DNA of 58,235 nucleotides, taken from assembly GCA_026393015.1 (NCBI GenBank), contig JAPLBA010000065.1:1-58235 (forward strand), read 5' to 3'. The notes beneath the pieces were generated by a model, which saw only the letters and a program-made list of their open reading frames with translations, was not told the origin of the DNA and ran no database searches. A program made the translations under genes and the position numbers. Within the stretch, counting starts at the first letter, position 1, and every line of letters starts with the position of its first letter. Shown here piece after piece: positions 21,506 through 58,118 of this stretch. Source of the stretch: Actinomycetota bacterium. Lineage in GTDB: Bacteria; Actinomycetota; Actinomycetes; Nanopelagicales; Nanopelagicaceae.

Positions 21506-21573
21506 GAACCCCAATTCGAACCCCAATTCGAACCCCAATTCGAACCCTAATTCGAACCCTAATTCGAACCCCA
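21506..21573. repeat. 12-bp tandem repeat x5.7 (gaaccccaattc / gaaccctaattc)
   Basis: Direct reading. A degenerate copy lies upstream (21488-21505). The array ends at the AAGGAG Shine-Dalgarno of the DUF3117 gene. Confidence 0.95.
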
Positions 21574-21584
21574 AGGAGTGACAT

Positions 21585-21764
21585 ATGGCCGCCATGAAGC
21601 CGCGGACTGGAAACGGTCCGATGGAAGTCACTAAAGAGGGTCGCGGTTTGGTGATGCGAGTTCCACTCGAAGGTGGCGGTCGTCTGGTCGTAGAGCTGAA
21701 TGGCGCAGAAGCCCAAGAATTAGGCGACGCTTTACTCGCAGCAGTTCTCCTCGTTAAGAAGTAG
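21585..21764 (+). CDS. DUF3117 family small protein (59 aa)
   Basis: Not in the supplied ORF track because it is under 60 aa. AAGGAG lies 6 nt upstream of ATG 21585. The translation MAAMKPRTGNGPMEVTKEGRGLVMRVPLEGGGRLVVELNGAEAQELGDALLAAVLLVKK matches the highly conserved actinobacterial DUF3117 pattern. TAG stop at 21762-21764. Confidence 0.85.
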   Translation: MAAMKPRTGNGPMEVTKEGRGLVMRVPLEGGGRLVVELNGAEAQELGDALLAAVLLVKK

Positions 21765-21767
21765 ACC

Positions 21768-23204
21768 ATGCCGCCACGGCTGGTCATTGGTGCATCGCGC
21801 ACCACCGAAATACGAATCCTTACCTTTCTTGCTGGCGACTCTCTCGATTCTCACTTCTCTTCCTACACTCTCGACCGTGACATCTCAGTTGACGTGCCTG
21901 ATTTCACTGGTGGGGCTGGTGAAGTTGGTGAAGTTTCCGCCACTTCAGCACAAGGTGTGCGCTCTCGATTAATTCTGGTGGGACTCGGATCGGCACAAGC
22001 TGCTGAGGTGCGCAAAGCCGGCGCAGCCGCAGGCCGTCGCGTGCGCGGCAAAGCGAGTGTTGTTTCTGTTCATATCGCGCTGACTCACGCAGGTGCGTTC
22101 CTTACCTCGCTTTCGTTAGCTACTTACGCATTTAATGATCTGAAGTCTCTCTCGGATGGCACTAAGCAATTAGAAACGATTGAAATCGATACAAAGGCAA
22201 AGTGGAGCAAGTTAGCTCATACTCAATCAATCATCGACGGTATTTTTCTGGCTAGAGATTTGGTGCATACTCCAGCCAATATTAAGAGTCCGGCGTGGAT
22301 GGCTGCGCAATCAGTGTTAGTTGCCACCGCGAATGGTTTAAAGAGTCGCGTTCGTGAAGAACGAGAACTTGAAAAGGAAGGCTTCGGAGGAATTCTCGCG
22401 GTCGGACAATCTTCACGCGATCGCGGTCCCCGATTCATTGAATTAAGTTATGCGCCCCGTGGGAGCGCTAAGTGGCCGCATGTTGTATTAATTGGTAAAG
22501 GAATTGTCTTCGATACCGGCGGAATATCACTGAAGCGTCCATACGACATCATGATTGCAATGAAGAGTGATATGGCTGGGGTGGCTGGCATCATCGGCAC
22601 GATGTCGACTCTCGGAATCACCAAACCCAGAGTGCGAGTTACTGCGCTCCTCGCATGTGCCGAGAACACCATCTCGGGCACCGCTCAACGTCCTTCCGAC
22701 GTCATCACGCACTTCGGTGGCACCACGGTCGAAGTCAAAGACACGGACGCCGAGGGAAGATTGGTCTTGGCAGATGCGCTCGCCTATGCCGCGGAGGTAT
22801 TAAAACCAGATGTGGTCATCGATATGGCAACACTGACCGCCGCCGCTACCTTGGGATTGGGTCGACAATATGCCGCGCTCTATTCCAATGATGATGAGCT
22901 CGCCCTTGAGCTAGAAACCGCAGGATTAGCTTCGGGGGATCGCGCCTGGCGGATGCCTCTTATCGAGGATTATCGTGAATCTTTGCGGAGTGATATCGCA
23001 GATCTCAGCAATATTTCATCAGGTGGAGTGGGGGCTGGTTCGATTACGGCTGCGCTCTTCCTCCAGCACTTTGTGGGTGACTATCGCTGGGCTCATCTAG
23101 ATATTGCAGGCAGTGGCCGGTCTGAAGTCGATGCCGGCGAAAACATCAAGGGCGGTACTGGCTACGGGGTTCGCCTCCTCACGGAATGGTTGGTTCGCCA
23201 ATGA
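21768..23204 (+). CDS. pepA: leucyl aminopeptidase (M17)
   Basis: 478 aa with M17 motifs (GKGIVFDTGGISLK, DTDAEGRLVLADAL). Confidence 0.85.
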   Translation: MPPRLVIGASRTTEIRILTFLAGDSLDSHFSSYTLDRDISVDVPDFTGGAGEVGEVSATSAQGVRSRLILVGLGSAQAAEVRKAGAAAGRRVRGKASVVSVHIALTHAGAFLTSLSLATYAFNDLKSLSDGTKQLETIEIDTKAKWSKLAHTQSIIDGIFLARDLVHTPANIKSPAWMAAQSVLVATANGLKSRVREERELEKEGFGGILAVGQSSRDRGPRFIELSYAPRGSAKWPHVVLIGKGIVFDTGGISLKRPYDIMIAMKSDMAGVAGIIGTMSTLGITKPRVRVTALLACAENTISGTAQRPSDVITHFGGTTVEVKDTDAEGRLVLADALAYAAEVLKPDVVIDMATLTAAATLGLGRQYAALYSNDDELALELETAGLASGDRAWRMPLIEDYRESLRSDIADLSNISSGGVGAGSITAALFLQHFVGDYRWAHLDIAGSGRSEVDAGENIKGGTGYGVRLLTEWLVRQ

Positions 23205-23818
23205 ATAGTGTTGATGCGTTCATCGAAAATTTCCGAAGTGAAGATGATGCTTTACCTGCTGCTCGAGCTCGCGCAGTAGAGGTGGGAAGTAATGAGCCCA
23301 CAGCTGCCGTGGGTGCACTATCGGCCTTCTTCGCGGAATTAATTGATGCTAGAAACGTGGTGGAAGCGCGCACTGGCGTAGGCCTTACAGCATTGTGGTT
23401 GCTACGCGGATTAGATAAAGATGCAGTGCTTACGAGCATCGATGCGGAAGCTGAGCACATTCGCCTGGCGCGTGAATCTCTTGCGGAGTACCCCACTTCG
23501 CAAATCCGGTTGATCTCTGGTGATCCACTTGAACTCCTAGGTAGGTTGACTGATGGCGCTTACGACATGGTTTGCCTGCGCCTTGATGCACGTGATCTTG
23601 CGGCTGCTATTGAGGAGTCTCATCGCCTGCTTCGGGCTGGTGGCATTCTCTTTATTTCTAATGCGTTGGGAGAAGGGAAAGTTCCTGATCCCGCACAGCG
23701 TGACGAAGTGACCATCGCAATACGTGAAGCCGGGCGCCACCTAAGAAGCGATGATCAGCGCTGGCGCACCACCCTTATCCCTGTAGGCGACGGTGTGCTG
23801 GTGGCCTTCCGTCTCTAA
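23201..23818 (+). CDS. class I SAM-dependent O-methyltransferase
   Basis: ATG 23201 overlaps the pepA stop (ATGA). The protein has a caffeoyl-CoA-OMT-like fold pattern (VEARTGVGLTALWLLRGL) and occupies the same position as the methyltransferase upstream of sigE/htrA in mycobacteria. Confidence 0.75.
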   Translation: MNSVDAFIENFRSEDDALPAARARAVEVGSNEPTAAVGALSAFFAELIDARNVVEARTGVGLTALWLLRGLDKDAVLTSIDAEAEHIRLARESLAEYPTSQIRLISGDPLELLGRLTDGAYDMVCLRLDARDLAAAIEESHRLLRAGGILFISNALGEGKVPDPAQRDEVTIAIREAGRHLRSDDQRWRTTLIPVGDGVLVAFRL

Positions 23819-23862
23819 TCTCTCCCTGATCCCCTCTAATCGTCCCTAATCCCGCCCAATAC
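23811..23862. repeat. degenerate ~10-11 bp repeat (cyctaatc core) x5
   Basis: gtctctaatc tctccctgatc ccctctaatc gtccctaatc ccgcccaata. The array starts on the methyltransferase stop codon. Confidence 0.6.
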
Positions 23863-23943
23863 TCAGAGAGTTTTCACATTTGATTCAGCAAGATCCAAGG
23901 TGAGTAAGTCATAATCAAGTCTGTTTGATAATCGAAAGAGGGA

Positions 23944-25164
23944 GTGATGAACCAAATGCCAGGTGAGGAGGTTCCGTGGTGGAGCCAACCTGCGCCCACG
24001 TCAATAACTCCGGCGACCATTACTCCGGCGACAACTCCGCTCTCTCCCGCAAGACCTCAACTTCCTATTATCCTCTTACTTAGCTTGACTCTGGTTGCTG
24101 GCGTACTCGGTGGAGGCATCGGATATTTTGTGGCTCACTACTCCGACGGTCGTTCCACGCCTGACGCGCGCGCGCAATTTGCAAACGCCGCTGATGGTCA
24201 AGCGTTAACAACTTCTACCGCGACGATTGAACGCGCTCCGGGATCAATTGCTGGGATTGCAGCGGGAGTGTTGCCGTCGGTAGTTTCTATTTCGACCACC
24301 TCGAGCGCTGGTTCCGGGACTGGTTCTGGATTTGTCATTCGCTCGGATGGATACATTCTCACGAATAATCACGTGGTTGCCGACGCCGCAGATGGTGCTG
24401 GAAAGATTGCTGTGCAATTTAATGGCGGGAAGAGTGTTGCGGCTGAAATCGTCGGGCGCGATGCCACATACGATTTGGCAGTTATTAAAGTAAATATGAA
24501 AAATCTCAAGGCACTGGTGCTCGGCGATAGCGATAAAGTCGTAGTAGGCGATTCGGTGATTGCAATCGGTTCACCACTCGGCCTCACCGGTACTGTAACC
24601 ACAGGTGTGGTGAGTGCGAAGGATCGTCCAGTAAGTGCAGGAGGAGGCTCGGACGCGCAGAATTCATTTATCAATGCCATTCAAACCGACGCTGCCATCA
24701 ATCCTGGAAATTCTGGTGGACCACTTGTAGACGTTACCGGTGCTGTTATTGGTATCAACTCGGCTATTGCGTCGATGAGTTCTTCGAGAGGGCAATCTGG
24801 TTCTATTGGCTTGGGTTTTGCAATTCCAATGAATCAGGCAAAGCGAACTGCGGAACAATTGATCGCTACCGGGAAATCATCGCATCCGATTTTGGGTGTC
24901 TCACTTGATCTGCAATTTGCTGGACCTGGCGCGCGTATTTCCACCGTGCCCGGCGCGGTGGTGACCAGTGGCCCAGCAGCTGAGGCGGGTCTACTCTCTG
25001 GTGATCTCATCTTGTCGATCGACGGACGCAATGTGGCAAATGCCGAGGAACTCATTGTGGCAATTCGCTCGCACGCTCCGGGAGATAAAGTAAAGATTTC
25101 GTACATCCGCGTGAAGAAAACCATCGATGTCACAGTTACACTGGTGGCTGCTCCAGCCAATTAA
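23944..25164 (+). CDS. htrA: HtrA/DegP-family S1C serine protease with a PDZ domain
   Basis: TM anchor, catalytic motifs (TNNHVV, D, GNSGGPLV) and a C-terminal PDZ (GLLSGDLILSIDG). The start is GTG 23944 or ATG 23947. Confidence 0.85.
   Translation: MMNQMPGEEVPWWSQPAPTSITPATITPATTPLSPARPQLPIILLLSLTLVAGVLGGGIGYFVAHYSDGRSTPDARAQFANAADGQALTTSTATIERAPGSIAGIAAGVLPSVVSISTTSSAGSGTGSGFVIRSDGYILTNNHVVADAADGAGKIAVQFNGGKSVAAEIVGRDATYDLAVIKVNMKNLKALVLGDSDKVVVGDSVIAIGSPLGLTGTVTTGVVSAKDRPVSAGGGSDAQNSFINAIQTDAAINPGNSGGPLVDVTGAVIGINSAIASMSSSRGQSGSIGLGFAIPMNQAKRTAEQLIATGKSSHPILGVSLDLQFAGPGARISTVPGAVVTSGPAAEAGLLSGDLILSIDGRNVANAEELIVAIRSHAPGDKVKISYIRVKKTIDVTVTLVAAPAN
24005..24040 (+). repeat. 15-bp tandem repeat x2.4 inside the htrA 5' end (encodes ITPATITPATTP)
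   Basis: taactccggcgacca / ttactccggcgacaa / ctccgc. Confidence 0.85.
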
Positions 25165-25170
25165 CGCGCC

Positions 25171-26145
25171 TTACACCTCGATGGTGCGCCCGAACTTACT
25201 GCCCTCTGCTCGTTGCATAAGTAGGCCAGCAAGTGCGGCATCCTGTATGCCAATTCCTACACTGTTGTAGATCCATAAGTCATCGCTTGAAGTACGACGA
25301 AAACCAGCATTTAACTTCTCCCCAAAACTAATCAGGGTTGTGGGGTCGAGTGTGCCTGCGGCGATCGCCTCCACCAGCGGACCAGCCTGTCGAATTGAAG
25401 TTTCTACATCATCTACTGCGATGGCGGCAGCGGCGTGCACCACATCTTGACCGTATTCGCATCGCCCAGGACCAAATGATCCAATGCTCACAAGTAGCTG
25501 AGTCTGAGCGAGCCAAGTTGCCTCTAAAAGTGGGGTGGTGGAATTGGTCGCTGTAATCACGACGTCGGCGCCTTCGACCGCCTCGCGTGCGCTTTTGGCG
25601 AGCGTGAATTCCAAGTGATGTGACTTCGCAAATTCAGCGAGGATGTGCGCACGTTCTGGATTTCTTGCAAAAGTACGAAATGTCGCCGATGGAAAGAGCT
25701 CGTGGAGAAACTCCATGTGCGAGATAATTTGTGGACCGCTTCCTATGAAAGCAATCGTTTTTGGCGCGGCTGCGGTGAAAGTCTCTACCGCGATGGCGCT
25801 GGCGGCTGCGGTTCGCATGAGAGTGACTGATTCACCGTCGATGATGGTGTGCAATTCACCGGTCTTCTCGTCTGAAACCAAAATAGTCGCATGGATAGCG
25901 GGTTTGCCGATCTCGGCGTTGGTCGGGTTGATACTCCCCATTTTGACTACCGCAGGTTGCCCTATGCCGGCGCGTGCGAGGTAGGCAAAGGCCACGCTTT
26001 CGTGATCTCCCGGAAGCAGGGCGCGGGGCGCGAGGAGCGCCTCACCGCGGTACATGGCAGCAAAGACCTCTCGTTGGGTCTGCAACACGTCCTCAAGGCT
26101 CACGAGCGCGTGTACGTCGGCGGCTGAGAGGAAGTGCAGAGCCAC
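25171..26145 (-). CDS. ornithine cyclodeaminase/mu-crystallin family protein
   Basis: OCD-family pattern (TIAFIGSGPQIISHMEFL Rossmann; MRTAAASAIAV). The ORF extends to 26379, but that extension overlaps tatB. GTG 26145 (VALHFLSAADV...) gives a typical ~325-aa length. Confidence 0.65.
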   Translation of the reverse strand: MALHFLSAADVHALVSLEDVLQTQREVFAAMYRGEALLAPRALLPGDHESVAFAYLARAGIGQPAVVKMGSINPTNAEIGKPAIHATILVSDEKTGELHTIIDGESVTLMRTAAASAIAVETFTAAAPKTIAFIGSGPQIISHMEFLHELFPSATFRTFARNPERAHILAEFAKSHHLEFTLAKSAREAVEGADVVITATNSTTPLLEATWLAQTQLLVSIGSFGPGRCEYGQDVVHAAAAIAVDDVETSIRQAGPLVEAIAAGTLDPTTLISFGEKLNAGFRRTSSDDLWIYNSVGIGIQDAALAGLLMQRAEGSKFGRTIEV

Positions 26146-27724: not shown

Positions 27725-28204
27725 TTCCCTCTTCTTCATTTCATCTACCAGCTCTTCAAGTAGGTCACGAAGTTCACTTCGCACGAAGTCACGAGTGGCG
27801 ACTTCACCCAGCGCATTGCGAAGCGCAGCTACTTCTCGGGTGAGGTAATCGGTATCAGCCAAGTTACGCTCATCACGGCTACGATCCTCCGCTCCCTGAA
27901 TACGATCGCGATCTGCTTGGCGATTTTGTGCAAGCAAGATCAAAGGCGCAGCGTACGACGCCTGTAAGGAAAGAATGAGTGTGAGGAAGATGAAGGGGAA
28001 CTCATCGAAACGCAGGTTGTGTGGGGCAAGTGAATTCCACAGCACCCAGAATGCCACGACTGTTGTCATGTACACCAAGAAGCGGGCGGTTCCCATGAAG
28101 CGTGCAAAGCGTTCTGAGATCTGACCAAAAATTTCGGGATCGTAGGCCGGTCGAAGGGAACGACGTACTTCTACTGGTTGATCGAGCCGTTGTGAGCGAA
28201 CCAT
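27701..28204 (-). CDS. DUF1003 family membrane protein
   Basis: Typical DUF1003 core (FPFIFLTLILSLQASYAAPLILLAQNRQADRDR). ATG 28204 shares one nt with the upstream stop (TAATG); the ORF also opens further up at 28243. Confidence 0.75.
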   Translation of the reverse strand: MVRSQRLDQPVEVRRSLRPAYDPEIFGQISERFARFMGTARFLVYMTTVVAFWVLWNSLAPHNLRFDEFPFIFLTLILSLQASYAAPLILLAQNRQADRDRIQGAEDRSRDERNLADTDYLTREVAALRNALGEVATRDFVRSELRDLLEELVDEMKKRESPTAGNS

Positions 28205-29460
28205 TATTCGCCTCCGTTCGTGGTGCGTGGTTTGTTGCGCCAATCTTCTGGAAGTAAGTGATCGAGCACGTCGTCGACGCTGACGGCGCCCAGGAGACGA
28301 TCGTGCTCATCCACGATAGGCACGGCAACCATGTTGTAGGCCGCCAGGTAGGAAGTCACCTCATTGAGAGAAGCTTCGGGGGAGAGCGGTTCAATGTCGG
28401 TATCGACGACTGAACCCACGAGGGTCGCCGGTGGTTCGCGGAGTAGTCGTTGGAAATGGGCAATTCCAATGAATCGGCCTGTGGGGGTTTCAACGGGTGG
28501 GCGACAGACAAACACTTGCGATGCGAGTGCTGGAGAAATTTCTGCGCGTCGCAAAGTTGCTAAGGCTTCGGCCACAGTTGAATCTGCGGTGAGCACGATG
28601 GGCTCGGTGGTCATCATGCCGCCTGCAGAGTAATCCTCGTAGCGCATGAGTCGACGAACGTCCTCCGCATCTTCTGGCTCCATGAGGTCAAGGAGGAGTT
28701 CAGCCTTCTCGGTTCCCACTTCGCGAAGTAAATCGGCGGCGTCATCGGGATCCATCTCTCCGAGGACGTCGGCCGCGCGCTCCCCTTCGAGTTCAGCCAA
28801 GATGGCAACGCGATCCTCCTCGCCCATTTCTTCCAATACATCGGCAAGACGCTCATCTTCTAATCCGCGCGCAATTTCAACTCTGCGCTTTAGTGAGATG
28901 TCTTGCAAGAAAGTTGCTAAGTCTGCAGCGCGCATTGATGAAATGGTAGCGAGCAAATTCTCGACGCCCTGATCTTGCTCAGCGAGTGTGAGTCCAGATA
29001 CTTCGTTCCAATCAACGGTGAGAGTTGCGCCTCGCCGACGAAGGCCGTTTGGCTTTCGCATCACGTGTACGCGACTGACGAGCCAATCGCGAGTGAGTCC
29101 TTGCTCCATCGCTACGTCTTCAACGATGACGGCAGATGAATCTTCTAGCAACGTAACCGTACGATCGAGTAGCTCGCTAGTGACGAGTACTTCGCTTTGA
29201 CGTTGCTCAAAGCGGCGCATGTTAAGCAAGCCAGTGATGACAACTGCACCTGGATCTATCGAGGTAACTCGGGTGATTGGAATAAAGATTCGGCGACGTG
29301 GGGGTACTTCGGCGACTAATCCAAGTACCCGCGGTGCCTGATTTTCGGTGCGAAGGGTGGCCACGACATCTCGAACCTTGCCGACCTGGTCGCCATTGGG
29401 GTCATAGATCGCGGTGCCGGTGAGCCTGGCAATGTAGACGCGCGAACCGAGCGTGCTCAT
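28204..29460 (-). CDS. MgtE N-terminal-domain / tandem CBS protein lacking the MgtE membrane domain
   Basis: Acidic MgtE_N helices (LEDERLADVLEEMGEEDRVAILAELEGERAADVLGEMDPDDAADLL), then two CBS motifs and no hydrophobic segment. ATG 29460 has GAGGGGG 6 nt upstream; the track ORF opens at TTG 29481. Confidence 0.8.
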   Translation of the reverse strand: MSTLGSRVYIARLTGTAIYDPNGDQVGKVRDVVATLRTENQAPRVLGLVAEVPPRRRIFIPITRVTSIDPGAVVITGLLNMRRFEQRQSEVLVTSELLDRTVTLLEDSSAVIVEDVAMEQGLTRDWLVSRVHVMRKPNGLRRRGATLTVDWNEVSGLTLAEQDQGVENLLATISSMRAADLATFLQDISLKRRVEIARGLEDERLADVLEEMGEEDRVAILAELEGERAADVLGEMDPDDAADLLREVGTEKAELLLDLMEPEDAEDVRRLMRYEDYSAGGMMTTEPIVLTADSTVAEALATLRRAEISPALASQVFVCRPPVETPTGRFIGIAHFQRLLREPPATLVGSVVDTDIEPLSPEASLNEVTSYLAAYNMVAVPIVDEHDRLLGAVSVDDVLDHLLPEDWRNKPRTTNGGE

Positions 29461-29586
29461 GGCGGACCCCCTCGCGGTCAATCGATCAGGCGAACGAAAT
29501 AGTGGCTACTTTCATCAAGTGTGATGGGGTAATCGTAACCGCTCGTCGGGGGTGCGGTCTTCGCATATAGCAGGCTTGGGTTTACC

Positions 29587-29634
29587 GCCGCCTCAGTGGC
29601 CGCCTCAGTGGCCGATTCAGTGGCCGCCTCAGAT
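29587..29634. repeat. 12-bp tandem repeat x4 (gccgcctcagtg)
   Basis: Direct reading. It lies in the 346-bp gap upstream of the MgtE_N-CBS gene, inside a doubtful 70-aa ORF (29478-29690, minus strand). Confidence 0.95.
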
Positions 29635-38358: not shown

Positions 38359-38388
38359 AAATACAGGCTAGCCTTTTCCTGTGACCCC

Positions 38389-38470
38389 CAGCGAATCATC
38401 GAGCGAATCAACCAGCGAATCATCGAGTGAATCAACCAGCGAATCATCGAGTGAATCAACCAGCGAATCG
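38389..38470. repeat. 24-bp tandem repeat x3.4 (cagcgaatcatcgagygaatcaac)
   Basis: Direct reading. It lies between the divergent lipid kinase (start 38358) and the membrane-protein ATG at 38477. Confidence 0.95.
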
Positions 38471-38476
38471 GCCAGA

Positions 38477-38848
38477 ATGCGCCCGCCGGCCTCGATTCTG
38501 CCCCGGTGGACGGCTGCGCTCCTCGGCGTCGAAATACTTGCTCTGCTCGTGTTGGCTCTCTCCTTCACCTACTTCTTGCTTACGGGGTCACCCCGTCATC
38601 TTGCGGCAGCGATTTTTGAGATCGCGCTCTTCCTAGCCGGTGCTGTGGGACTGCTATTTGCGACCAAGGGAATGCGAGAAGGTCGTCACTTTGGAAGGTC
38701 ACCCTCGATCGTGGCAAATATCATCGCGCTGCCAGTCGCATATTCACAGGGACAAGCGGGCAATTATTGGATCGCGATTCCGCTCGCATTAATTGCACTT
38801 GCAGTTATCTATGGAGTCTCCAGGACTCTTCGTGGGGAAAGTAAGTAA
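38477..38848 (+). CDS. small multi-pass membrane protein (hypothetical)
   Basis: 123 aa from ATG 38477 with four hydrophobic helices. An in-frame GTG at 38381 would add a (SESSSESTSE)n N-terminus encoded by the repeat. Confidence 0.5.
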   Translation: MRPPASILPRWTAALLGVEILALLVLALSFTYFLLTGSPRHLAAAIFEIALFLAGAVGLLFATKGMREGRHFGRSPSIVANIIALPVAYSQGQAGNYWIAIPLALIALAVIYGVSRTLRGESK

Positions 38849-39321: not shown

Positions 39322-39792
39322 TTACTGAGAAAAACTCTCTAATTCCTCGCCATCGAGGCGAAATACTGTCCAATCTGACATTGGCCTAGCACCGACGCTC
39401 TTGTAGAACTCGATGGCTGGTGCGTTCCAATCGAGTACCCACCATTCAAGGCGGGCATATCCGCGTGCGACACAACGGGCAGCTAACGTCTTGAGGAGCG
39501 CCTTGCCCACGCCTTGCCCACGACGTTCGGGCTTGACGTAAAGATCCTCCAGATAGATGCCGTGTTGACCCCGCCATGTTGAGTAATTGATGTACCAGAC
39601 CGCAAAGCCGATTACCTCAGTACCGTCGACGGCCACATCTCCGAAGAGGTAAGGCGTCTCGGCGAAGAGTGCGACTTCCAAGTCCGCATGAGTGGAGAGG
39701 ACGCTCTCCGGGCTCTTCTCATAAATGGCCAGATCAATGATGAGCTGATGGATGGCTGGCACGTCTAAAGGTTCCGCAGGGCGAATATGCAT
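39322..39792 (-). CDS. GNAT family N-acetyltransferase
   Basis: 156 aa with the acetyl-CoA motif RRGQGVGKALL. Confidence 0.85.
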   Translation of the reverse strand: MHIRPAEPLDVPAIHQLIIDLAIYEKSPESVLSTHADLEVALFAETPYLFGDVAVDGTEVIGFAVWYINYSTWRGQHGIYLEDLYVKPERRGQGVGKALLKTLAARCVARGYARLEWWVLDWNAPAIEFYKSVGARPMSDWTVFRLDGEELESFSQ

Positions 39793-42241: not shown

Positions 42242-42451
42242 ATGGAAACGATCTATCAGAATGTCTTTGGATGCATGTTTTGGATCCGCCGGAGAGTGGT
42301 GGAGCCGATGAAGAATTCTCGAGGTGATGTGCCCGGTTGGGTACTCGTGGTTTTGATGACCGCTGGATTAGTGACGGTGCTCTGGGCAGTGGCAGGACCA
42401 CGACTCTCGGCAATGCTCTCTAGGTCACTTGATGCGGTCTCCTCTCAATAA
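42242..42451 (+). CDS. putative Flp/pseudopilin-like small membrane protein
   Basis: A short basic leader, then G followed by one long hydrophobic helix (SRG/DVPGWVLVVLMTAGLVTVLWAVAG). It sits directly after tadC. There is no canonical G/xxxxEY motif. The start could be the internal ATG (MKNSRG...). Confidence 0.35.
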   Translation: METIYQNVFGCMFWIRRRVVEPMKNSRGDVPGWVLVVLMTAGLVTVLWAVAGPRLSAMLSRSLDAVSSQ

Positions 42452-42494
42452 GTCGGTACCGCATAAGTCGGCACCGCACAAGTCGGTACCACGC
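42450..42494. repeat. 15-bp tandem repeat x3 (aagtcggtaccgcat)
   Basis: Direct reading. It begins inside the stop codon of the pilin-like ORF and ends 12 nt before the TadE-like ATG at 42507. Confidence 0.95.
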
Positions 42495-44067: not shown

Positions 44068-44403
44068 ATGTTCGCCATTGCTCGTTTTACTACCACTTCG
44101 ATTTCGCCGTGGGGCGAGAGCGAGCTCTTTGAGCACGCCCGTCGAGCCGTGGAGTTACTCGCTGGCCGTCCTGGTTATCTGAGCGGACGTTTCGGGGTGG
44201 CCACCGATCAGGATTTCGATCGAGCCAGCGGAAGCACCCCCAATTCGGTCTACGCCCTGGTGACCGAGTGGGAGAACGTGGGCTCATATCGACGTGCGCT
44301 CTCCGGGTTTGAGATCAAAATGGAGGTTGTGCCACTCCTCTCTCGCGCGCTCGATGAGCCAGGGGGCTTTGAGGAAATCGCTCTCACTGCAGATTCCGAG
44401 TAA
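44068..44403 (+). CDS. antibiotic-biosynthesis-monooxygenase (ABM)-like small protein
   Basis: 111 aa with a dimeric alpha/beta-barrel-like pattern ([17 protein letters not shown]). Tentative. Confidence 0.45.
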
Positions 44404-48204: not shown

Positions 48205-50103
48205 ATGGCCGGACGTATCCGTGATGAAGATGTCGCTTACGTACGCGAGCATGCTCCCATTGATGAAATTGTGGGCGACTATGTGCAGCTCAAGAATGCC
48301 GGTGGCGGGCAGAAGAAAGGGCTTTGCCCTTTTCACGATGAAAAGTCACCGTCATTTCATGTAACCCCATCTCGTGGTTTCTTTCACTGCTTCGGGTGCC
48401 AGACTGGCGGTGACGTCATCTCGTTCGTCATGAAGATTGAACACCTCGCATTCTCTGAAACGGTTGAGAGGTTAGCGCAGCGCATTGGATTTGAACTGCG
48501 CTATGAAGAGGGTGATCGTCCGAGTGGAACAACCGGCGGGCAACGTACTCGGCTGATTGAGGCGCATAGACATGCGGCTGCGTTTTACCAAGAAGCGCTC
48601 AACGCAGCAGGTCCTGCTCAAGTCGGTCGAGCTTTCTTATCGGAGCGCGGGTTCGATCAACAAACGTCATTAACTTTCATGGTGGGTTATTCTCCCGATG
48701 AATGGGATGCGCTCACTAAGTTCCTCAAAGGTAAAGGGTTTACCAATGAAGAACTCATCAATGGTGGATTAGCGAAGGAAGGTCAGCGCGGACTCATCGA
48801 TCGTTTTCGCAATCGCCTGATGTGGCCGATTAAAGATATCTCCGGAGACATTGTGGGATTCGGTGCTCGCAAACTATCTTCAGATGAAAGTGATACGGGG
48901 CCTAAATACCTCAACAGCCCCGAGACTCCTATTTATAAAAAGAATCAAGTTCTCTATGGTCTTGATATGGCGAAGAAAGAGATCGCCAAAACTCGCCAGG
49001 CGGTTGTCGTAGAGGGGTATACCGACGTGATGGCGGCCCATGTCGCTGGAGTCACTACTGCGGTGGCTACTTGTGGTACTGCCTTTGGTGAAGAACATAT
49101 TCGCACCCTTCGGCGCCTCTTAATGGACGACGATGCCTTCCGTGGTGAAGTGATCTTTACCTTTGACGGTGACGCTGCAGGTCAAAAGGCGGCCCTACGC
49201 GCATTCACTGAAGATCAGAAGTTCGTCACGCAAACTTTTGTGGCTATCGAGAAGGAAGGGTTAGACCCTTGCGAATTGCGCCAGAAGCGCGGAGATGCCG
49301 CGGTACGCGAACTTATCGCGAATCGGATTCCGCTCTTTGAATTCGCTATTCGATCAACGCTTTCTAACTACAATCTCACTGCTGCTGAGGGTCGAGTGGA
49401 GGCGCTGAAAGTCGCCGCGCCACTAGTAGCGCAGATCCGAGATCGCTCGCTCCGCCCTGAGTACACACGTTCACTTGCTGGGTGGCTTGGTATGGAAATC
49501 GAGAGTGTGCGTGCTGCAGTTGCTACCAGCGTTCCTAAAGTGGGCCGGAAGTATGCCAGCGACCCGGCCCCAAGTGATGCTTCCCTGGAGAATCCAGCAC
49601 CAAAGCGCTTGCAACGCCCAGATCCAGGCGATCCGGTGGCATCCCTCGAGCGCGAAGTTGTAAAGACGATCTTGCAAACCCCGCAGAACTCTCCGAGCTG
49701 GCGCGATCTTGAAGCCAGTGACTTCTTCCACGAAATTTATCGAGCACTTTTTATACGTTTGCATCAGGTTGAAGGCGCGGAAGATCTCACTGCAACAGTC
49801 GAAGCAATCAGAGGGGCCGGTGATGACGATTCTATTGAGATCGCTTCGCTGGCGACCGAGTTGGCCGTAGAGCCGATGCGCACTTCAGATACCTCGGGTA
49901 CGCGATACGGTGAGAGTTTAAGTTATCGACTGAGAGAAGTTGGCGTCTCTCGTCGAATCGAAGAGCAGAAGTCAGAACTACAACGAGTAAATCCGTTAGA
50001 AGAAGCAGGTCGCTACCAACAACTCTTTACTGATCTCGTCCAAATGGAAGCGGTACGTCGGCAACTTCGCGACATAGCATTAGGTGAGGTCAACCGTGGC
50101 TAA
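48205..50103 (+). CDS. dnaG: DNA primase
   Basis: Zinc finger CPFHDEKSPSFHVTPSRGFFHCFGC and TOPRIM motif VVVEGYTDVM. Confidence 0.92.
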   Translation: MAGRIRDEDVAYVREHAPIDEIVGDYVQLKNAGGGQKKGLCPFHDEKSPSFHVTPSRGFFHCFGCQTGGDVISFVMKIEHLAFSETVERLAQRIGFELRYEEGDRPSGTTGGQRTRLIEAHRHAAAFYQEALNAAGPAQVGRAFLSERGFDQQTSLTFMVGYSPDEWDALTKFLKGKGFTNEELINGGLAKEGQRGLIDRFRNRLMWPIKDISGDIVGFGARKLSSDESDTGPKYLNSPETPIYKKNQVLYGLDMAKKEIAKTRQAVVVEGYTDVMAAHVAGVTTAVATCGTAFGEEHIRTLRRLLMDDDAFRGEVIFTFDGDAAGQKAALRAFTEDQKFVTQTFVAIEKEGLDPCELRQKRGDAAVRELIANRIPLFEFAIRSTLSNYNLTAAEGRVEALKVAAPLVAQIRDRSLRPEYTRSLAGWLGMEIESVRAAVATSVPKVGRKYASDPAPSDASLENPAPKRLQRPDPGDPVASLEREVVKTILQTPQNSPSWRDLEASDFFHEIYRALFIRLHQVEGAEDLTATVEAIRGAGDDDSIEIASLATELAVEPMRTSDTSGTRYGESLSYRLREVGVSRRIEEQKSELQRVNPLEEAGRYQQLFTDLVQMEAVRRQLRDIALGEVNRG

Positions 50104-50155
50104 GAAAGTAGAGCAAAGTCGGTTACTTGCCGAAGTCTTCGGAATTAAAGTTAAA

Positions 50156-50614
50156 ATGGATTCCCTGCTACTTGAAGAGCGTGAAATTCCTTGGAGTGAG
50201 ATTGATGATCTCACTGTTGATGAGGAGGGAATTGCCGCACTGCTTTCAACCGGTGAACGTTGCCAATACTCCTTCGGCACGGCGACGATACGGGACCGAA
50301 GAAGAGTTGCCCAAGCGCTACGCGAGCGAGTGATGGCCTCCATACTTATTTCGGTCACTGGCCCCGAGGAAACTCTGGTCGCCCTCAGGCGAGATGCCAG
50401 GGGTGAGGTATTTACCCGAATATCAGTGGCTGGAGAGATCTCCGAGGCTGGTCGACGCGGTGCCGAGGCGCTTGCTCTTCGACTGGCTGAGAGCGCGGGC
50501 GTGATCGATGCGCCGCTTCGATGGTCTGCCGCTCCGGGGTCTGCCACTCCGGGGTCTGCCACTCCGGGGTCTGCCTCTCCGGAGAGTTTCAGTGCAACCC
50601 CCACGCTGGGGTAG
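50156..50614 (+). CDS. hypothetical protein with a repeat-encoded (PGSAT)n C-terminus
   Basis: The ORF runs between dnaG and tRNA-Asn with no recognisable family. The start is uncertain (GTG 50084/50096 or ATG 50156). Confidence 0.35.
   Translation: MDSLLLEEREIPWSEIDDLTVDEEGIAALLSTGERCQYSFGTATIRDRRRVAQALRERVMASILISVTGPEETLVALRRDARGEVFTRISVAGEISEAGRRGAEALALRLAESAGVIDAPLRWSAAPGSATPGSATPGSASPESFSATPTLG
50524..50583. repeat. 15-bp tandem repeat x4 (gtctgccactccggg)
   Basis: Direct reading. It lies in the last ~30 codons of the hypothetical ORF, 45 bp upstream of tRNA-Asn. Confidence 0.95.
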
Positions 50615-50628
50615 GCTTCTAAGGACCT

Positions 50629-50704
50629 TCCCGTGTAGCTCAATTGGCAGAGCAGCCGGCTGTTAACCGGCAGGTTCTTGGTTCGAGTCCAAGCGCGGGA
50701 GCCA
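50629..50704 (+). tRNA. tRNA-Asn (anticodon GTT), CCA encoded
   Basis: Manual cloverleaf of 76 nt. Acceptor TCCCGTG/CGCGGGA, D stem GCTC/GAGC, anticodon stem GCCGG/CCGGC with loop CTGTTAA, T stem CTTGG/CCAAG with loop TTCGAGT, discriminator G, then CCA. Confidence 0.93.
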
Positions 50705-50821
50705 ATTTTTCAGGCGTCAGCCCAGATTCTTCAGGCGTAGGGCTCAACTTGTGAGTTTTCGCAGAGCCTGGGGTGAGATCCCTGGCGAAAGCCCCACCCC
50801 CACCTCGGGAGCCCTTACGGT

Positions 50822-50839
50822 GTACTCAGTACTGAGTAC
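50822..50839. promoter_or_regulatory. perfect 18-bp palindrome GTACTCAGTACTGAGTAC
   Basis: The sequence equals its own reverse complement. It lies 78 bp upstream of the response-regulator ATG and overlaps the first unit of the 14-bp array. Confidence 0.6.
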
Positions 50840-50888
50840 CCGAGACTAAGTACCCGAGACTAAGTACCCGAGATTAAGTACTCGAGAA
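50833..50888. repeat. 14-bp tandem repeat x4 (taagtacccgagac)
   Basis: tgagtacccgagac / taagtacccgagac / taagtacccgagat / taagtactcgagaa. The array ends 28 nt before ATG 50917, and a GAAGGAGG Shine-Dalgarno lies in between. Confidence 0.95.
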
Positions 50889-50916: not shown

Positions 50917-51642
50917 ATGGCTGCAGTGAGTGCGACCGCACCGCTCATACTCGTGGTCGATGATGAAGATGGGGTGGCAGATCTGCTGGTCGATGCCCTC
51001 ACTCTCGGCGGCTACCGCGCACGTCGCGCACGCGATGGGCAAGAGGCGCTCCGCCTGCTACGCGAAATTGCTCCCGATGTCATCTTGCTAGATGTCAATA
51101 TGCCCGGGCTTAATGGATTTGAAGTCTTGGAACGCATTCGTGCCAAGGGAGATGACACTCCGGTGCTCTTCCTCACTGCTCGACACGAGCGCGAAGATAC
51201 CACTCGTGGATTTGTGCTTGGCGCCGATGATTACATCACCAAGCCATTTGGTCTTGAAGAATTGCTCTTGCGAGTGAAGGCCATCTTGCGTCGCACACGC
51301 AAAGAAGAGCCAGAACCAGAGGTATTGCGAAGTGGCAATCTGGAACTCCACTCAGAGAGCCACGAAGTACGGCAAGCAGGCGAGATCGTTACCCTCTCGC
51401 CGACTGAATTTCGCCTCCTTGAGTATTTGATGCTCAATCAGAAGCGCGTGCTCACTAAAGCCCAACTCTTACGAGCTGTCTGGGATATCGATTTCGAAGC
51501 TGAAACTAGCGTGGTTGACACTTATATCTCTTATCTCCGTAAGAAGCTAGATCCGCAAGGTTTGGGACTTATCCGAACTGTTCGCGGAGTTGGCTTCCAG
51601 TTGCGAGAGGTAGAAGCTGCCGCTGAAAAAGGCGCCCAGTGA
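50917..51642 (+). CDS. OmpR-family response regulator
   Basis: Receiver motifs (LVVDDE, LLDVNMPGLNG, K at ITKPF) and a winged-helix output domain (LSPTEFRLLEYLM...VDTYISYLRKKL). Confidence 0.9.
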   Translation: MAAVSATAPLILVVDDEDGVADLLVDALTLGGYRARRARDGQEALRLLREIAPDVILLDVNMPGLNGFEVLERIRAKGDDTPVLFLTARHEREDTTRGFVLGADDYITKPFGLEELLLRVKAILRRTRKEEPEPEVLRSGNLELHSESHEVRQAGEIVTLSPTEFRLLEYLMLNQKRVLTKAQLLRAVWDIDFEAETSVVDTYISYLRKKLDPQGLGLIRTVRGVGFQLREVEAAAEKGAQ

Positions 51643-51662
51643 CCACCAGTGACCACCAGTGA
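51637..51662. repeat. 10-bp unit x2.6 (cagtgaccac) at the RR/HK junction
   Basis: CAGTGA occurs three times. The first provides the RR stop (TGA 51640-51642) and the third provides the HK start (GTG 51659). Confidence 0.85.
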
Positions 51663-55091: not shown

Positions 55092-55828
55092 TGAGTGCGT
55101 TGCAGATTGTGGTCATTCACCCCGAGCTACTTGGGACCTATGGAGACATTGGGAATGCGCGCATTTTGGCGCACCGGGCACGAATGCGCGGAATACCTGC
55201 GGAGATTATTTTCACCCCACATAATCAACCCTTACCTACCATGGGTGATATTTACTTATTAGGTGGCGGCGAGGATCGTGCGCAAATCGCTAGCGTTGAG
55301 GCGCTGCGATCTTCGCTGGGCGTGTTGGGCGGTGCACTCGATCGCGGCGCGCAACTCTTTGCAGTCTGTGCTGGCTTACAAATTCTTGGCGAATCTTTCC
55401 CAGGAGTGAATGGAGAAATTATCGCTGGTCTTGGAATGGTCCCGATTGTTTCGCTACCTGGAAGTGATCGCATCGTGGGCGAGGTACTTGTGAAATCTGA
55501 TCTCTTTACCGAGCCGCTGACGGGTTTTGAAAACCATCGTGGGCGTACGGACCTGGGTGGCCTGAGGCCACTCGGCCGAGTTCTCGTAGGAGGGGGAAAT
55601 GGTGGGGCGGCGATTGCGATCAATGAACGAGTCGATGGCTTCATAGCAGGCACCATCTTGGCGACCTATCTCCATGGCCCCGCCCTCGCGCGAAACCCCG
55701 TTCTCGCCGACCACTTGCTCTCCGAGGTAGTGGGCGCCCTAACGAAAGTGCCACAAGGTGAAGAGATTGCCGAACTCCTCGCGTTCGAACGGCGAAGGGC
55801 GCTGAGCGCTGCTAATTTTGGCAAATAA
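55088..55828 (+). CDS. gatD: lipid II isoglutaminyl synthase, glutaminase subunit (CobQ/GatD-like)
   Basis: ATGA overlap with murT. It has the type-1 amidotransferase nucleophile motif (FAVCAGLQILG) and a C-terminal His (YLHGP). Confidence 0.85.
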   Translation: MMSALQIVVIHPELLGTYGDIGNARILAHRARMRGIPAEIIFTPHNQPLPTMGDIYLLGGGEDRAQIASVEALRSSLGVLGGALDRGAQLFAVCAGLQILGESFPGVNGEIIAGLGMVPIVSLPGSDRIVGEVLVKSDLFTEPLTGFENHRGRTDLGGLRPLGRVLVGGGNGGAAIAINERVDGFIAGTILATYLHGPALARNPVLADHLLSEVVGALTKVPQGEEIAELLAFERRRALSAANFGK

Positions 55829-55918
55829 TCCAGATCTCTCGCAGAATTCTCACAGGCAGCTTTTGCATAATAATTTTAATATTTGAGTGAACTAGCAGAT
55901 GTAGTGAAGGAGCAATCA

Positions 55919-57349
55919 GTGAGCGCAGAAAAGCTAGTGGAGTCGGACTCTTTGATGAGTCCACCGAGCGGCTTTCGCCGAATATTTAGCAGAGGCGCAG
56001 GTAACGGCGCCAAGGTCGGCGCGGGATTTCTGGTGGGGGCTCTGCTCGTGGGCGGGGGCGCATTTGCCGCCAACACGATTTCTTCTTCGGATTCCATTAA
56101 TGCCTGTGTGAATAACACCACTCGAGTCATCACTATTGCGCCGACGAGTGGCAAGTGCCCCACGGGTACTCGCGCGCTCACGTGGAATATTGCTGGACCG
56201 CAAGGCCCAGTAGGCCCAGTGGGCCCTGCAGGTGCTGCGGGCGCAAACGGCGCACCGGGTCCAGCTGGTTCAGCTGGTCTAGCTGGAGCAACAGGTGCGC
56301 AAGGTTCGGCAGGAGTGGCAGGGAATTCGGGAAGTGCAGGGAGTGCGGGAAGTGCAGGGAGTGCGGGAAGTACGGGAAGTACCAGCAACTCGAACACTTC
56401 ATTCAGCGTGACCTCGATTGCAAATGCTCTCCTGCCTTCGGTGGTCAGTATTGCAATCACTACTCGGACGGGTAGTGTGGCCGGATCTGGTTCCATCATT
56501 AAGTCGAGTGCAACTTCCACATTTATTTTGACGAATAACCACGTTATTTCAGGCGCTACAAAGGTCACCGTCGAGTTAGAAGATGGCACCGAACTTGAGG
56601 GCCAAATTGTTGGCTTTGATGTTGCCTACGATCTTGCGGTTGTGATGGTCAATCAAGGGAATCTGCCCGTGGCAAACTTCGGGGATTCTTCAAAGGTTGT
56701 TATTGGTGAGCCGGTAGTAGCAATCGGATCTCCACTTGGTTTATCCGGAACAGTCACGAGCGGCATCATCTCCTCACTCGATCGTCCGGTCACTACCGGA
56801 GGTACGGGATCGGAGACGTACATCAACGCCTTACAAACTGATGCCGCGGTGAATCCAGGAAATTCAGGTGGTCCGTTGGTTAACGCCCAGAGCCTGATCA
56901 TTGGCGTAAATAGCGCAATCGCTTCATTGGGTAGCGCTACTTCCTCCACCGGAAGTATTGGGTTGGGTTTTGCAATTCCGATCAATCAAGCCAAACGGAT
57001 TTCAAACGAAATAATTGCAACTGCAAAGATCGTGGGAACAAAGGTCACTTTGGCGGGAGTATCAACCCGGCCCCTTCTTGGGGTCTCCTTCGATACAAGT
57101 TACGCGGGGTCTGGCGCGAAGATCTACGCGTTGACGGCTGGCGGTGGGGCGGAGGTGGCCGGCATTCCAGCCAACAGTGTGATTAAGGCGATCGATGGGA
57201 AGAGCACGAAAGATAACATCGAGGCGATCGTGCGCATTCGCTCGTATGACCCAGGTGCCAGCATCAAAGTCACCGTTGACCTGCCAAACTCTGGTGGCAG
57301 CCGGACCTTTACTGTCACGCTCGGATCGGCTCCGTCTAATAGCGCCTAG
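55919..57349 (+). CDS. membrane-anchored HtrA-family S1C protease with a collagen-like G-X-Y stalk and a PDZ domain
   Basis: AAGGAG lies 6 nt upstream of GTG 55919; the track ORF opens at TTG 55883. Order of elements: TM helix, Cys-x16-Cys module, 21 G-X-Y triplets, protease motifs (TNNHVI, GNSGGPLV), PDZ (AGIPANSVIKAIDG). Confidence 0.8.
   Translation: MSAEKLVESDSLMSPPSGFRRIFSRGAGNGAKVGAGFLVGALLVGGGAFAANTISSSDSINACVNNTTRVITIAPTSGKCPTGTRALTWNIAGPQGPVGPVGPAGAAGANGAPGPAGSAGLAGATGAQGSAGVAGNSGSAGSAGSAGSAGSTGSTSNSNTSFSVTSIANALLPSVVSIAITTRTGSVAGSGSIIKSSATSTFILTNNHVISGATKVTVELEDGTELEGQIVGFDVAYDLAVVMVNQGNLPVANFGDSSKVVIGEPVVAIGSPLGLSGTVTSGIISSLDRPVTTGGTGSETYINALQTDAAVNPGNSGGPLVNAQSLIIGVNSAIASLGSATSSTGSIGLGFAIPINQAKRISNEIIATAKIVGTKVTLAGVSTRPLLGVSFDTSYAGSGAKIYALTAGGGAEVAGIPANSVIKAIDGKSTKDNIEAIVRIRSYDPGASIKVTVDLPNSGGSRTFTVTLGSAPSNSA
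56195..56383 (+). repeat. collagen-like region: 21 uninterrupted G-X-Y codon triplets, with a near-perfect 9/18-bp DNA repeat at 56321-56382
   Basis: GPQ GPV GPV GPA GAA GAN GAP GPA GSA GLA GAT GAQ GSA GVA GNS GSA GSA GSA GSA GST GST. The DNA unit gggaagtgcagggagtgc is repeated exactly. Confidence 0.9.
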
Positions 57350-57378
57350 GTCGCCTAGGTCGTCTAGGTCGTCTAGGT
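57343..57378. repeat. 9-bp tandem repeat x4 (cgyctaggt), each carrying an in-frame TAG
   Basis: The first unit contains the protease stop codon (TAG 57347-57349). Confidence 0.95.
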
Positions 57379-57442
57379 TATTTGGGTTATTGGGTTATTG
57401 GGTGATTGGGTTATTGGGTTATTGGGTTATTGGGTTATTGGG
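57379..57442. repeat. 8-bp tandem repeat x8 (ttattggg)
   Basis: It directly abuts the 9-bp array. The last unit contains the stop codon (TAA, minus strand, 57435-57437) of the convergent DUF1638 gene. Confidence 0.95.
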
Positions 57443-58112
57443 TAGCGCGCAGTAGTAGCGCCAACTGACGTTCCAGGCCGATAGTTCCGACCACTTCGAT
57501 TTCTAGTGGCAGGCCAATTGCCTCCGCTCCTTGAATCGCAAGTGCGCGAAGTTCGTCAGTGGGCTGTTGGGCGAGCCAAAGCACGCGGCGGTAGTGGGCA
57601 AAGTAATCCGGGCGCAGTTCAGGGTAGCGGTCTAAGCCAAGTTCTACGATCACTGATCGGTAAAACGAACGTACGAGATAATCGGTGAGGTAGTAGGTGC
57701 CGGGTTCTTCTTCCATGATTTCGGAAATGCGCTCTGGAGATGCAAAGACGTCGTAGCAATGAGCGCCAGCGAGCCGAGGAATATTGAACTCCTCAACGAC
57801 TCCGTCAAGCGCACCGTAAGTACCACAATCTGCGTACGCGATTGCCACACGCTTATGTGCGGAAATAACATCGGGGAGTAATCCGCGTACTGTGCCGGCA
57901 ATCTTCTCTGGGTGATTATGTAGGAGCGGGGGGAGCGGGTAGATCTTCAGTGACCATCCGCGCCGTTCACTTATTTCCGATATTTCCGTAGCGAGCGCAC
58001 CGCAGGCCACCACTGCCCACTCCTTCACGCTGCTCTCCATACGAGCGCTGCTCTCCATACGAGCGCTGCTCTCCATACGAGCGCTGCTCTCCATACGAGC
58101 GCTGCTCTCCAT
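57435..58112 (-). CDS. DUF1638-like protein with a reiterated (MESSAR)n N-terminus
   Basis: Core pattern VVACGAL...PPLLHNHPEKI...IAYADCGTYGALD...RLAGAHCYDVF resembles DUF1638. Five in-frame ATGs are supplied by an 18-bp repeat, so the true start is undetermined. Confidence 0.6.
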   Translation of the reverse strand: MESSARMESSARMESSARMESSARMESSVKEWAVVACGALATEISEISERRGWSLKIYPLPPLLHNHPEKIAGTVRGLLPDVISAHKRVAIAYADCGTYGALDGVVEEFNIPRLAGAHCYDVFASPERISEIMEEEPGTYYLTDYLVRSFYRSVIVELGLDRYPELRPDYFAHYRRVLWLAQQPTDELRALAIQGAEAIGLPLEIEVVGTIGLERQLALLLRATQ

Positions 58113-58118
58113 ACGCGC
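58029..58118. repeat. 18-bp tandem repeat x5 (minus-strand unit GCTCGTATGGAGAGCAGC)
   Basis: Direct reading. Each unit contains an ATG and a GGAGAG element. Confidence 0.95.

Follow-up and report, generated by a model that had tools for sequence, protein, structure and literature searches.

The window examined here, a bacterial chromosome segment of 58,235 nucleotides (contig JAPLBA010000065.1), carries thirteen short tandem-repeat arrays (A1 to A13), almost all of them at gene boundaries. Its gene content is bacterial, with the primase DnaG, GlyRS-type and housekeeping enzymes, a Tad pilus operon, an OmpR-type regulator/histidine kinase two-component pair and one tRNA-Asn, the last being the only match to Rfam in the whole window. 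The GC content is 53%, and intergenic DNA amounts to 4.6% of the window in our own gene model, so that about 95% is coding. The source is an uncultured, genome-compact freshwater clade of Actinomycetota allied to Nanopelagicales.

Arrays were detected with Tandem Repeats Finder (TRF), and merged arrays were counted at a score of at least 50. A total of eleven merged arrays were found in the window at this threshold, compared with a mean of 0.22 (maximum 2) in 100 dinucleotide-preserving shuffles. All thirteen arrays named in a preliminary description of the sequence were recovered, with coordinates off by a few bases at most. They are listed below together with one weaker repeat in the same region.

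A1, 21495-21574: 12-nt unit AACCC(C/T)AATTCG, 6.7 copies (TRF), in a 190-bp spacer and ending 10 nt before the ATG of a DUF3117 gene
A2, 23813-23853: degenerate C-rich 10/20-nt repeat, the first unit of which holds the TAA stop (23816-23818) of an O-methyltransferase gene, the rest lying in the 3' spacer
A3, 24006-24039, plus strand: 15-nt unit, 2.5 copies, in frame at about codons 21-32 of an HtrA-like protease gene (23944-25164)
A4, 29587-29632: 12-nt unit, 3.8 copies, in a 346-bp spacer, 5' of the conserved leader of a PRC/MgtE_N/CBS gene (28204-29460, minus strand)
A5, 38388-38469, plus strand: 24-nt unit with a 12-nt sub-period, 3.4 copies, either codons 3-30 of the open reading frame (ORF) 38381-38848 or its 5' leader
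A6, 42448-42490, plus strand: 15-nt unit, 2.9 copies, the first unit including the TAA (42449-42451) that ends a pilin-like 69-aa gene in the Tad pilus operon
A7, 50523-50582, plus strand: 15-nt unit, 4.0 copies, in frame, 11-30 codons before the stop of gene 50084-50614 (plus strand)
Proto-array, 50705-50746: 21-nt unit (ATT(T/C)TTCAGGCG...), about two degenerate copies, from the first base after tRNA-Asn
A8, 50831-50887: 14-nt unit, 4.1 copies, in the spacer between tRNA-Asn and an OmpR-type response regulator gene (50917-51642), ending 29 nt before the ATG
A9, 51636-51662, plus strand: 10-nt unit CCAGTGACCA, 2.7 copies, at the response-regulator/histidine-kinase junction
A10, 56318-56380, plus strand: 9/18-nt coding repeat in the collagen-like GXY region of a second HtrA-like protease gene (55883-57349)
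A11, 57343-57378: 9-nt unit, 4 copies, the first unit including the TAG (57347-57349) that ends the protease gene, with the remainder in the convergent-gene spacer
A12, 57376-57443: 8-nt unit GGGTTATT, 8.4 copies, filling the convergent spacer, the last full unit holding the TAA stop (57435-57437, minus strand) of a DUF1638 gene
A13, 58028-58119, minus strand: 18-nt unit, 5.1 copies, the minus-strand unit GAGAGCAGCGCTCGTATG consisting of 15 nt of intercistronic spacer together with the ATG that opens the DUF1638 gene (57435-58112, minus strand)

The placement of the arrays at gene boundaries, already proposed in the preliminary description, is far from random. Twelve of the thirteen are intergenic or lie no more than 90 nt from a gene end, against 3.0 expected by permutation within the window (none of 20,000 permutations reaches twelve; P<5e-5), and eight touch intergenic DNA where 1.1 would be expected. 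The actual stop or start codon of the flanking gene is found inside the unit in six of the thirteen cases. Between 21.4 and 58.2 kb, arrays make up 16% of the intergenic DNA. The sole array located away from gene boundaries is A10, at about codon 145 of 488. Among the arrays of the clade, the period is divisible by three in all seven coding arrays but in only five of the fifteen non-coding ones (Fisher P=0.005). Five anatomical classes were observed, namely junction duplications (A6, A9 and A13), arrays covering a stop codon and the 3' spacer (A2, A11 and A12), leader or upstream arrays (A1, A4 and A8), in-frame terminal tails (A3, A5 and A7) and the internal collagen-like array A10.

As had been noted before, the units are unrelated to one another and do not form a dispersed family. 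The longest word common to any two units is 7 nt (7.3 nt for shuffled units), and no dispersed copies of the array units were found. A lone copy of the A1 unit (AACCCCAATTCG, with at most one mismatch) lies at 44236-44247, within a spacer of 157 bp that precedes the glycyl-tRNA synthetase-like gene; it is probably a coincidence, as about 0.26 such matches are expected by chance in our own rough estimate. The units are imperfect, with TRF matches of 67-100% within arrays and variant units in most of them. The remark on 6-bp palindromes in the preliminary description is not supported, since four consensus units contain one where 2.5 are expected (P=0.23). Elements of the repetitive extragenic palindromic (REP), bacterial interspersed mosaic element (BIME) or enterobacterial repetitive intergenic consensus (ERIC) type were rejected because palindromes are not enriched and units are not dispersed, and arrays of clustered regularly interspaced short palindromic repeats (CRISPR) were rejected because the units are directly adjacent with no spacers between them. 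A perfect 11-nt match of 2.2 copies at 39499-39522 was also discarded as a variable repeat; it codes for GQGVGK, a motif of a GNAT acetyltransferase (Pfam), and has the same length in a close relative (L002).

For comparison, relatives were sought in a DnaG scan with one genome per species. Two close ones were found: L001, the metagenome-assembled genome (MAG) of an uncultured actinobacterium from Lake Erken with about 91-95% DNA identity to the window, and L002, the Actinomycetes MAG ELA343 with about 90%. The remaining matches of the scan are Nanopelagicaceae (Planktophila or Nanopelagicus) at about 60-64% amino-acid identity. Further loci came from exact-protein look-ups and a metagenome scan, the latter giving nine loci. 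We distinguish same-species contigs at 99.5-100% identity (L095, L097, L099-L101 and L104-L119), loci at 90-97% identity (L083, L084, L086-L089, L096, L098 and L102) and two sister species at about 76-82% identity (L081/L082/L085 and L090-L092). The sample thus covers about 60 kb of genome in several lineages, in the form of assembled contigs rather than whole genomes.

Orthologous segments were extracted with flanking anchors. The alignments of the relatives break exactly at the arrays, with flanks that are 78-100% identical. Copy number differs between the window and its relatives (78-99.8% identical) at twelve of the thirteen arrays, A2 being the only invariant one, and the loci are therefore copy-number-variable as the preliminary description had suggested.

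Among the junction duplications, A9 shows the most regular series of alleles. The TGA stop of the regulator (51640-51642) lies in its first unit and the GTG start of the kinase (51659) in its last, so that the array is a multiplied GTGA stop/start overlap. Alleles with 1.7, 2.7, 3.7, 4.7 and at least 4.7 copies were found, and all nine relatives have at least 1.7. As these alleles differ by whole 10-nt units, the gap from regulator stop to kinase start measures 6, 16, 26 or 36 nt. One contig that is 99.8% identical to the window (L095) carries one unit more. A13 provides five ATGs in one frame, with GGAGAG ahead of each, and its translation would be (MESSAR)n. It is a single copy in four 90%-identical relatives (L002 and L087-L089), and 4-6 copies of a diverged unit with GTG in place of ATG are present in L090-L092, which are 78-82% identical. 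A6 lies in the spacer before, or in the N-terminal leader of, the next small Tad-operon ORF (42429/42504-42851), the start of which is placed after the array by the gene callers; L002 has a single copy. This small ORF gave no Pfam match and is TadE-like only by eye, in its N-terminal sequence.

In the stop-codon and 3'-spacer class, A2 has equal length in L083, L084 and L104-L108 and is missing from L081. A11 is reduced to about 1.5 copies in L002 and nearly absent in relatives, and A12 is shrunk to 3-19 nt in seven relatives.

The leader or upstream arrays vary in both number and unit. A1 adjoins the GGAG of the DUF3117 gene (21585-21764, plus strand; PF11314) and is represented by 3.5 copies of a variant unit, AACCCCCACCGG, in L083/L084 and by none in L081. 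A4 has about 1.8 copies in L083 and 5.8 in L084. A 70-aa ORF running over A4 was rejected as a gene because of a stop in L081 and a frameshift in L083. A8 ranges from 0 to at least 4 copies in relatives, including contigs that encode an identical regulator protein. The neighbouring 21-nt proto-array has 2.5 copies in L002/L089, 3.6 in L087/L088 (L087 3944-4019) and at least 3.5 in L098 (5' part), so that the spacer between tRNA-Asn and the regulator gene contains two independent variable arrays.

The in-frame tails are found at both ends of proteins. A3 precedes a hydrophobic segment of its HtrA-like protease and is 36 bp longer in L083 (80 vs 44 nt), 30 bp of which are two additional 15-nt units; L084 is longer by 6 bp. 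In L084 no gene is called at 12234-13662, where the window and L083 have the HtrA-like protease, and the alignment lacks about 770 bp (window 25028-25796); to judge from the alignment, this may be a deletion or a pseudogene in that strain. A5 would encode (SESSSEST)n, or would be a 5' leader instead if the ATG at 38477 is the true start, and is a single copy in L002. The C-terminal tail encoded by A7 is (PGSAT)n, and this array is a single copy in all eight relatives. A minus-strand ORF at A7 (50084-50643) was rejected as a real gene on account of a stop codon in L090/L092; codon-usage scoring did not separate the two strands.

The protein containing the internal array A10 matches the Pfam family Collagen (PF01391, E=6e-9, residues 105-163) with an in-frame 9-nt Gly-X-Y periodicity. 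The orthologous segment measures 73 nt in the window and 46-73 nt in relatives. The combination of an HtrA-type serine protease with a collagen-like GXY region (55883-57349) is an unusual one.

At the shortest distances the arrays are stable. Contigs from several sequencing runs that are 99.9-100% identical to the window have the same copy numbers at A2, A3, A4, A6 and A10, which indicates rates like those of variable-number tandem repeats (VNTRs) and not like those of switches. A9 differs only at about 99.8% identity (L095). Among the contigs L104-L119, short-read (Logan) contigs that are otherwise 99.7-100% identical to the window end systematically within A1, A5 and A8. As they all end at the same base, these ends were rejected as a sign of heterogeneity within samples, and they are accounted for by repeats that exceed the assembly k-mer. 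Gene callers disagree on the start codons beside arrays, and annotations of MAGs of this clade are likely to be fragmented or mis-started at array sites.

The relatives carry further arrays, also at gene boundaries and often at other ones than in the window, which agrees with the earlier proposal of a recurring process. A count by eye of the non-redundant loci in the clade places 20 of 21 at boundaries. Many arrays are specific to one lineage; expansion of A7 and A12 was seen in the window alone, and that of the 21-nt array in relatives alone. In L081, a 13-nt unit (TCATGAGTAAATG, 2.9 copies, 8379-8416) is arrayed at the junction of an M20 peptidase gene and an LDcluster4 gene, where the window (20004-20007) and L083 have a single ATGA stop/start overlap; going by these sequences, a coupled junction has been duplicated here for a second time, independently. 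The sister species have 15-nt (4.3 copies) and 17-nt (3.1 copies) arrays at L090 12837-12927 and L092 6169-6220, in the spacer between a GATase_3 gene and the second protease gene, and there is no array at the equivalent position of the window (55829-55882).

Expressed as arrays per 10 kb, the density is 1.89 in the window (repeat load 1.19%), 1.50 in the loci of the same species group (0.75%) and 2.22 in those of the sister species (1.22%). The 78 Nanopelagicaceae-like loci around dnaG (1.08 Mb) have 0.20 with a repeat load of 0.09%, and 50 kb of E. coli K-12 has 0.2 (one array). Array density is therefore a property of the clade, about 10-fold above the sister family Nanopelagicaceae.

The arrays are distributed unevenly within the window. 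The preliminary description had found none in 1-21000, and this holds at a score of at least 50: the first 21.4 kb have no array where about 6.4 are expected from the density of the remainder (P ~0.002), and 1-21000 contains only six weak two-copy matches (scores 31-45), which is chance level (7.7 per shuffle at a score of at least 30). Spacers in the first 21.4 kb are fewer and shorter, with 663 bp of intergenic DNA compared to 1,992 bp in the remainder. The lack of arrays is due in part to these shorter spacers and to a stretch at about 10-15.1 kb that has no counterpart in the alignments with L083/L084. This stretch (about 10000-15100) contains polysaccharide and glycosyl genes, no tandem arrays, and nothing that aligns to L083/L084, which are 91-97% identical elsewhere; from its gene content it looks like a strain-variable cell-envelope island.

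With their head-to-tail excess and with strain differences in copy number between conserved flanks, these loci are bacterial VNTRs by definition. We consider it probable that they are ordinary VNTRs produced by replication slippage or microhomology-mediated tandem duplication, unusually frequent in this clade and filtered by purifying selection. Segments of 8-24 nt would be duplicated in tandem, locus by locus, by slippage or microhomology. Such duplications probably arise genome-wide and would survive only where the protein stays undamaged. The tolerated sites would be the few spacers, stop or start codons bridged by the array, the gene being kept whole by its first or last copy, and disordered N- or C-terminal tails, the latter only with a period divisible by three. 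Once formed, the arrays would expand, contract, homogenise and decay, leaving strains that differ in copy number, unit variant or presence. A duplication spanning a stop or start codon leaves an intact gene end and is therefore the cheapest one in a genome nearly without spacers.

Several observations point to this origin. In the unexpanded alleles, direct repeats that are short and imperfect are already present, with AGCGAATC at a distance of 12 nt in A5 and TCGGxAC at one of 15 nt in A6, together with GG..GG in A7 and CCAGTGA in A9. Partial units occur at the array ends, and both features are as expected for slippage. Units within one array are more alike than orthologous units between species (A1 and A13), which indicates that expansion and contraction are ongoing. 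In-frame arrays are limited to protein termini, A10 being the internal exception. At about 95% coding, the boundary pattern is explicable by mutation and purifying selection alone and no function is needed. Many arrays are single copies in 90%-identical relatives, a pattern more in keeping with tolerated duplications that come and go than with switches that are maintained. Some consequences for the neighbouring genes are nevertheless plausible from their positions, namely a longer 5' leader at A1, A4 and A8, a stop-to-start gap growing by 10-nt steps at the coupled junction of A9, several tandem in-frame start codons at A13 and longer low-complexity terminal peptides at A3, A5 and A7.

Some points weigh against slippage and purifying selection as the whole explanation. 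A uniform mutational model accounts only partly for the array-free 1-21 kb, and the clade-wide excess is drawn from a sample of about 60 kb of genome in several lineages. Moreover, some loci are arrayed in several species, which could mean upkeep by selection and not slip-prone loci: the regulator/kinase junction has its 1.7 or more copies in nine of nine relatives, expansion of the DUF1638 start occurs in two separated lineages, and two species-level lineages have an array in the DUF3117 leader.

These recurrences are among the grounds for adaptive tuning, the main rival, which we regard as rather unlikely. Arrays would then be kept since their copy number adjusts translation initiation, coupling, leader length or terminal peptides, giving reversible heritable expression variants. 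The arrays do sit exactly on Shine-Dalgarno (SD) sequences, start codons and stop codons. At A9 the distance from regulator stop to kinase start grows by 10 nt with every copy, with alleles of 1.7 to 4.7 copies among very close strains, and these steps would shift the kinase start away from both the regulator stop and the only SD-like sequence. The GGAGAG+ATG module is multiplied at A13 and expanded in two separate lineages, the DUF3117 leader arrays recur likewise in two, and the same three loci are thus arrayed in different lineages. There is a precedent in the promoter tandem repeats of M. tuberculosis, the copy number of which is reported to be phase-variable (PMC12817950). On the other hand, purifying selection alone predicts the boundary enrichment, and most arrays are single-copy in 90%-identical relatives, so that the genes work without them. 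The genes concerned are mostly housekeeping, the units are 8-24 nt long, no reading frame is toggled as all coding periods are divisible by three, and the arrays do not vary among clonal contigs of several samples. Scans for sigma-70 promoters and for terminators around A1, A8 and A11-A13 gave nothing informative, and no promoter was placed relative to the arrays. The likeness to contingency loci put forward in the preliminary description is limited to hypermutable repeats near translation signals. Contingency loci have units of 1-7 nt and switch frames, whereas the arrays described here have longer units and frame-preserving coding periods, belong to genes that are not mainly surface or restriction genes and are invariant at five loci in clonal contigs, and the analogy was not upheld.

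The other explanations are weaker still. Expansion of A1, A2, A10 and A12 at non-B-DNA hot spots, through G3/C3 tracts, G-quadruplex or i-motif structures and stalled replication, is very improbable. The window has five G-quadruplex-type patterns (loops of at most 9 nt) and four of them are these arrays, A12 among them; however, any repeated short unit with GGG or CCC gives such a pattern by construction, a G3/C3 tract in four of seven short-period units compared with about 2.3 expected (our own rough estimate) is not significant, and the remaining nine arrays have no such motif. Direct repeats are typical of OmpR/PhoB-type sites, and A8 lies within the upstream region of an OmpR-type regulator gene, where its 14-nt repeats might serve as the operator of that regulator. 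We give very little credence to iterated regulator binding sites of this kind, as A8 is absent or a single copy in L002, L089 and L090-L092 despite the same regulator gene, its period is 14 nt and not 10-11 nt, and the units of the other loci are unrelated. An assembly or sequencing artefact would explain why Logan short-read contigs end inside A1, A5 and A8, where assemblers struggle, although those breaks are already accounted for by repeats longer than the assembly k-mer. It is hardly conceivable in view of arrays at the same loci in independent assemblies from different lakes and projects, the base-for-base recovery of A2, A3, A4, A6 and A10 in Logan contigs of several runs, and a longest array of 92 nt, which is below the read length.

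As VNTRs, then, the loci are of a known kind; what is unusual is their density in a streamlined genome and the set of duplicated stop/start junctions. They have in common with other VNTRs the head-to-tail units of about 8-24 nt, the locus-specific sequence, the copy-number polymorphism between strains, the slippage-type origin and the preference for intergenic DNA and tolerant protein termini. They differ from the usual case by a density about 10-fold that of the sister family in a streamlined planktonic bacterium with 95% coding sequence. Bacterial VNTRs, or minisatellite-like repeats, are used for multiple-locus VNTR analysis (MLVA) typing (reviewed by Zhou, Aertsen & Michiels 2014, as cited in PMC9426551), and intergenic tandem repeats are a source of structural variants in lake Planctomycetota (PMC9426551). 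We found no report of such arrays in freshwater Actinobacteria in the literature.

The closest in style are the tandem repeats of the Borg extrachromosomal elements of Methanoperedens (PMC9879509), and the resemblance is noteworthy. Both systems have a unit unique to each locus, flanking partial repeats and a contrast between coding and non-coding periods; in Borgs all units within ORFs are divisible by three compared with only 14-38% of the intergenic ones (PMC9879509). Both also share arrays that start within the terminal part of an ORF, population-level variation, contigs that break at arrays and coding arrays that give low-complexity peptides. The repeat load is of the same order, with a Borg average of 0.62% (PMC9879509) compared to 1.19% in the window and 0.75-1.22% in the loci of the clade. 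However, Borg repeats are perfect, A-rich, located on giant archaeal linear elements and about half inside ORFs (PMC9879509), whereas the arrays of the window have imperfect units (67-100% matches), lie on a bacterial chromosome and are nearly all at gene edges. The window was rejected as a Borg, being a bacterial chromosome segment with DnaG, a tRNA and housekeeping genes. A broader reading, which we think improbable and slightly more so than adaptive tuning on its own, is that the clade has a Borg-like, genome-wide and rapid birth and death of tandem repeats arising from a peculiarity of replication or repair, and that a genome with very few regulators uses them adaptively as reversible expression dials, such as the 10-nt steps of A9, the leaders of variable length and, at the DUF1638 gene, the repeated SD+ATG module.

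Within the same phylum, the arrays resemble mycobacterial interspersed repetitive units (MIRUs) in being intercistronic operon repeats, including one at a two-component junction, with stop and start codons inside the repeat (A6, A9, A13 and the 13-nt array of L081). MIRUs reportedly occur in the senX3-regX3 intercistronic region, an observation that is said to go back to Supply et al. in 1997. The likeness is one of position only, since MIRUs are a dispersed family of related 40-100-bp units and each locus described here has its own 8-24-nt unit taken from local sequence. Promoter or leader repeats that vary in copy number are a further feature shared with mycobacteria (PMC12817950). The preliminary description had already set the arrays apart from MIRU-type elements.

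Genome-streamlined plankton are usually described as nearly repeat-free with minimal spacers. In this clade, which stands next to the most abundant freshwater bacteria, about 1% of the sequence consists of fast-evolving tandem repeats, and in the array-bearing part of the window about one sixth of the spacer DNA does. Selection for a compact genome may thus be outpaced by mutation pressure. The alleles form a natural series (e.g., 6, 16, 26 and 36 nt between coupled genes) that is usable for tests of translational coupling, and the arrays can serve as strain markers for lake populations. They are also a known cause of contig breaks and wrong gene starts in the MAGs of this group. If the excess is genome-wide, a comparison of replication and repair genes with those of Nanopelagicaceae could reveal what sets the rate of tandem duplication in bacteria.

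Finally, a conserved leader of about 110 nt was found beside A4, at window positions 29461-29575 (minus strand), directly upstream of the PRC/SH3/MgtE_N/CBS gene (28204-29460, minus strand). It gave no Rfam match, and the sequences are too few for covariation to show. The leader is nearly identical between species in which coding DNA is only 76-80% identical, and its predicted fold has ACCCCC paired to GGGGGU in the Shine-Dalgarno region, 8 nt ahead of the ATG, which makes it a candidate cis-regulatory RNA that would sequester the Shine-Dalgarno sequence.

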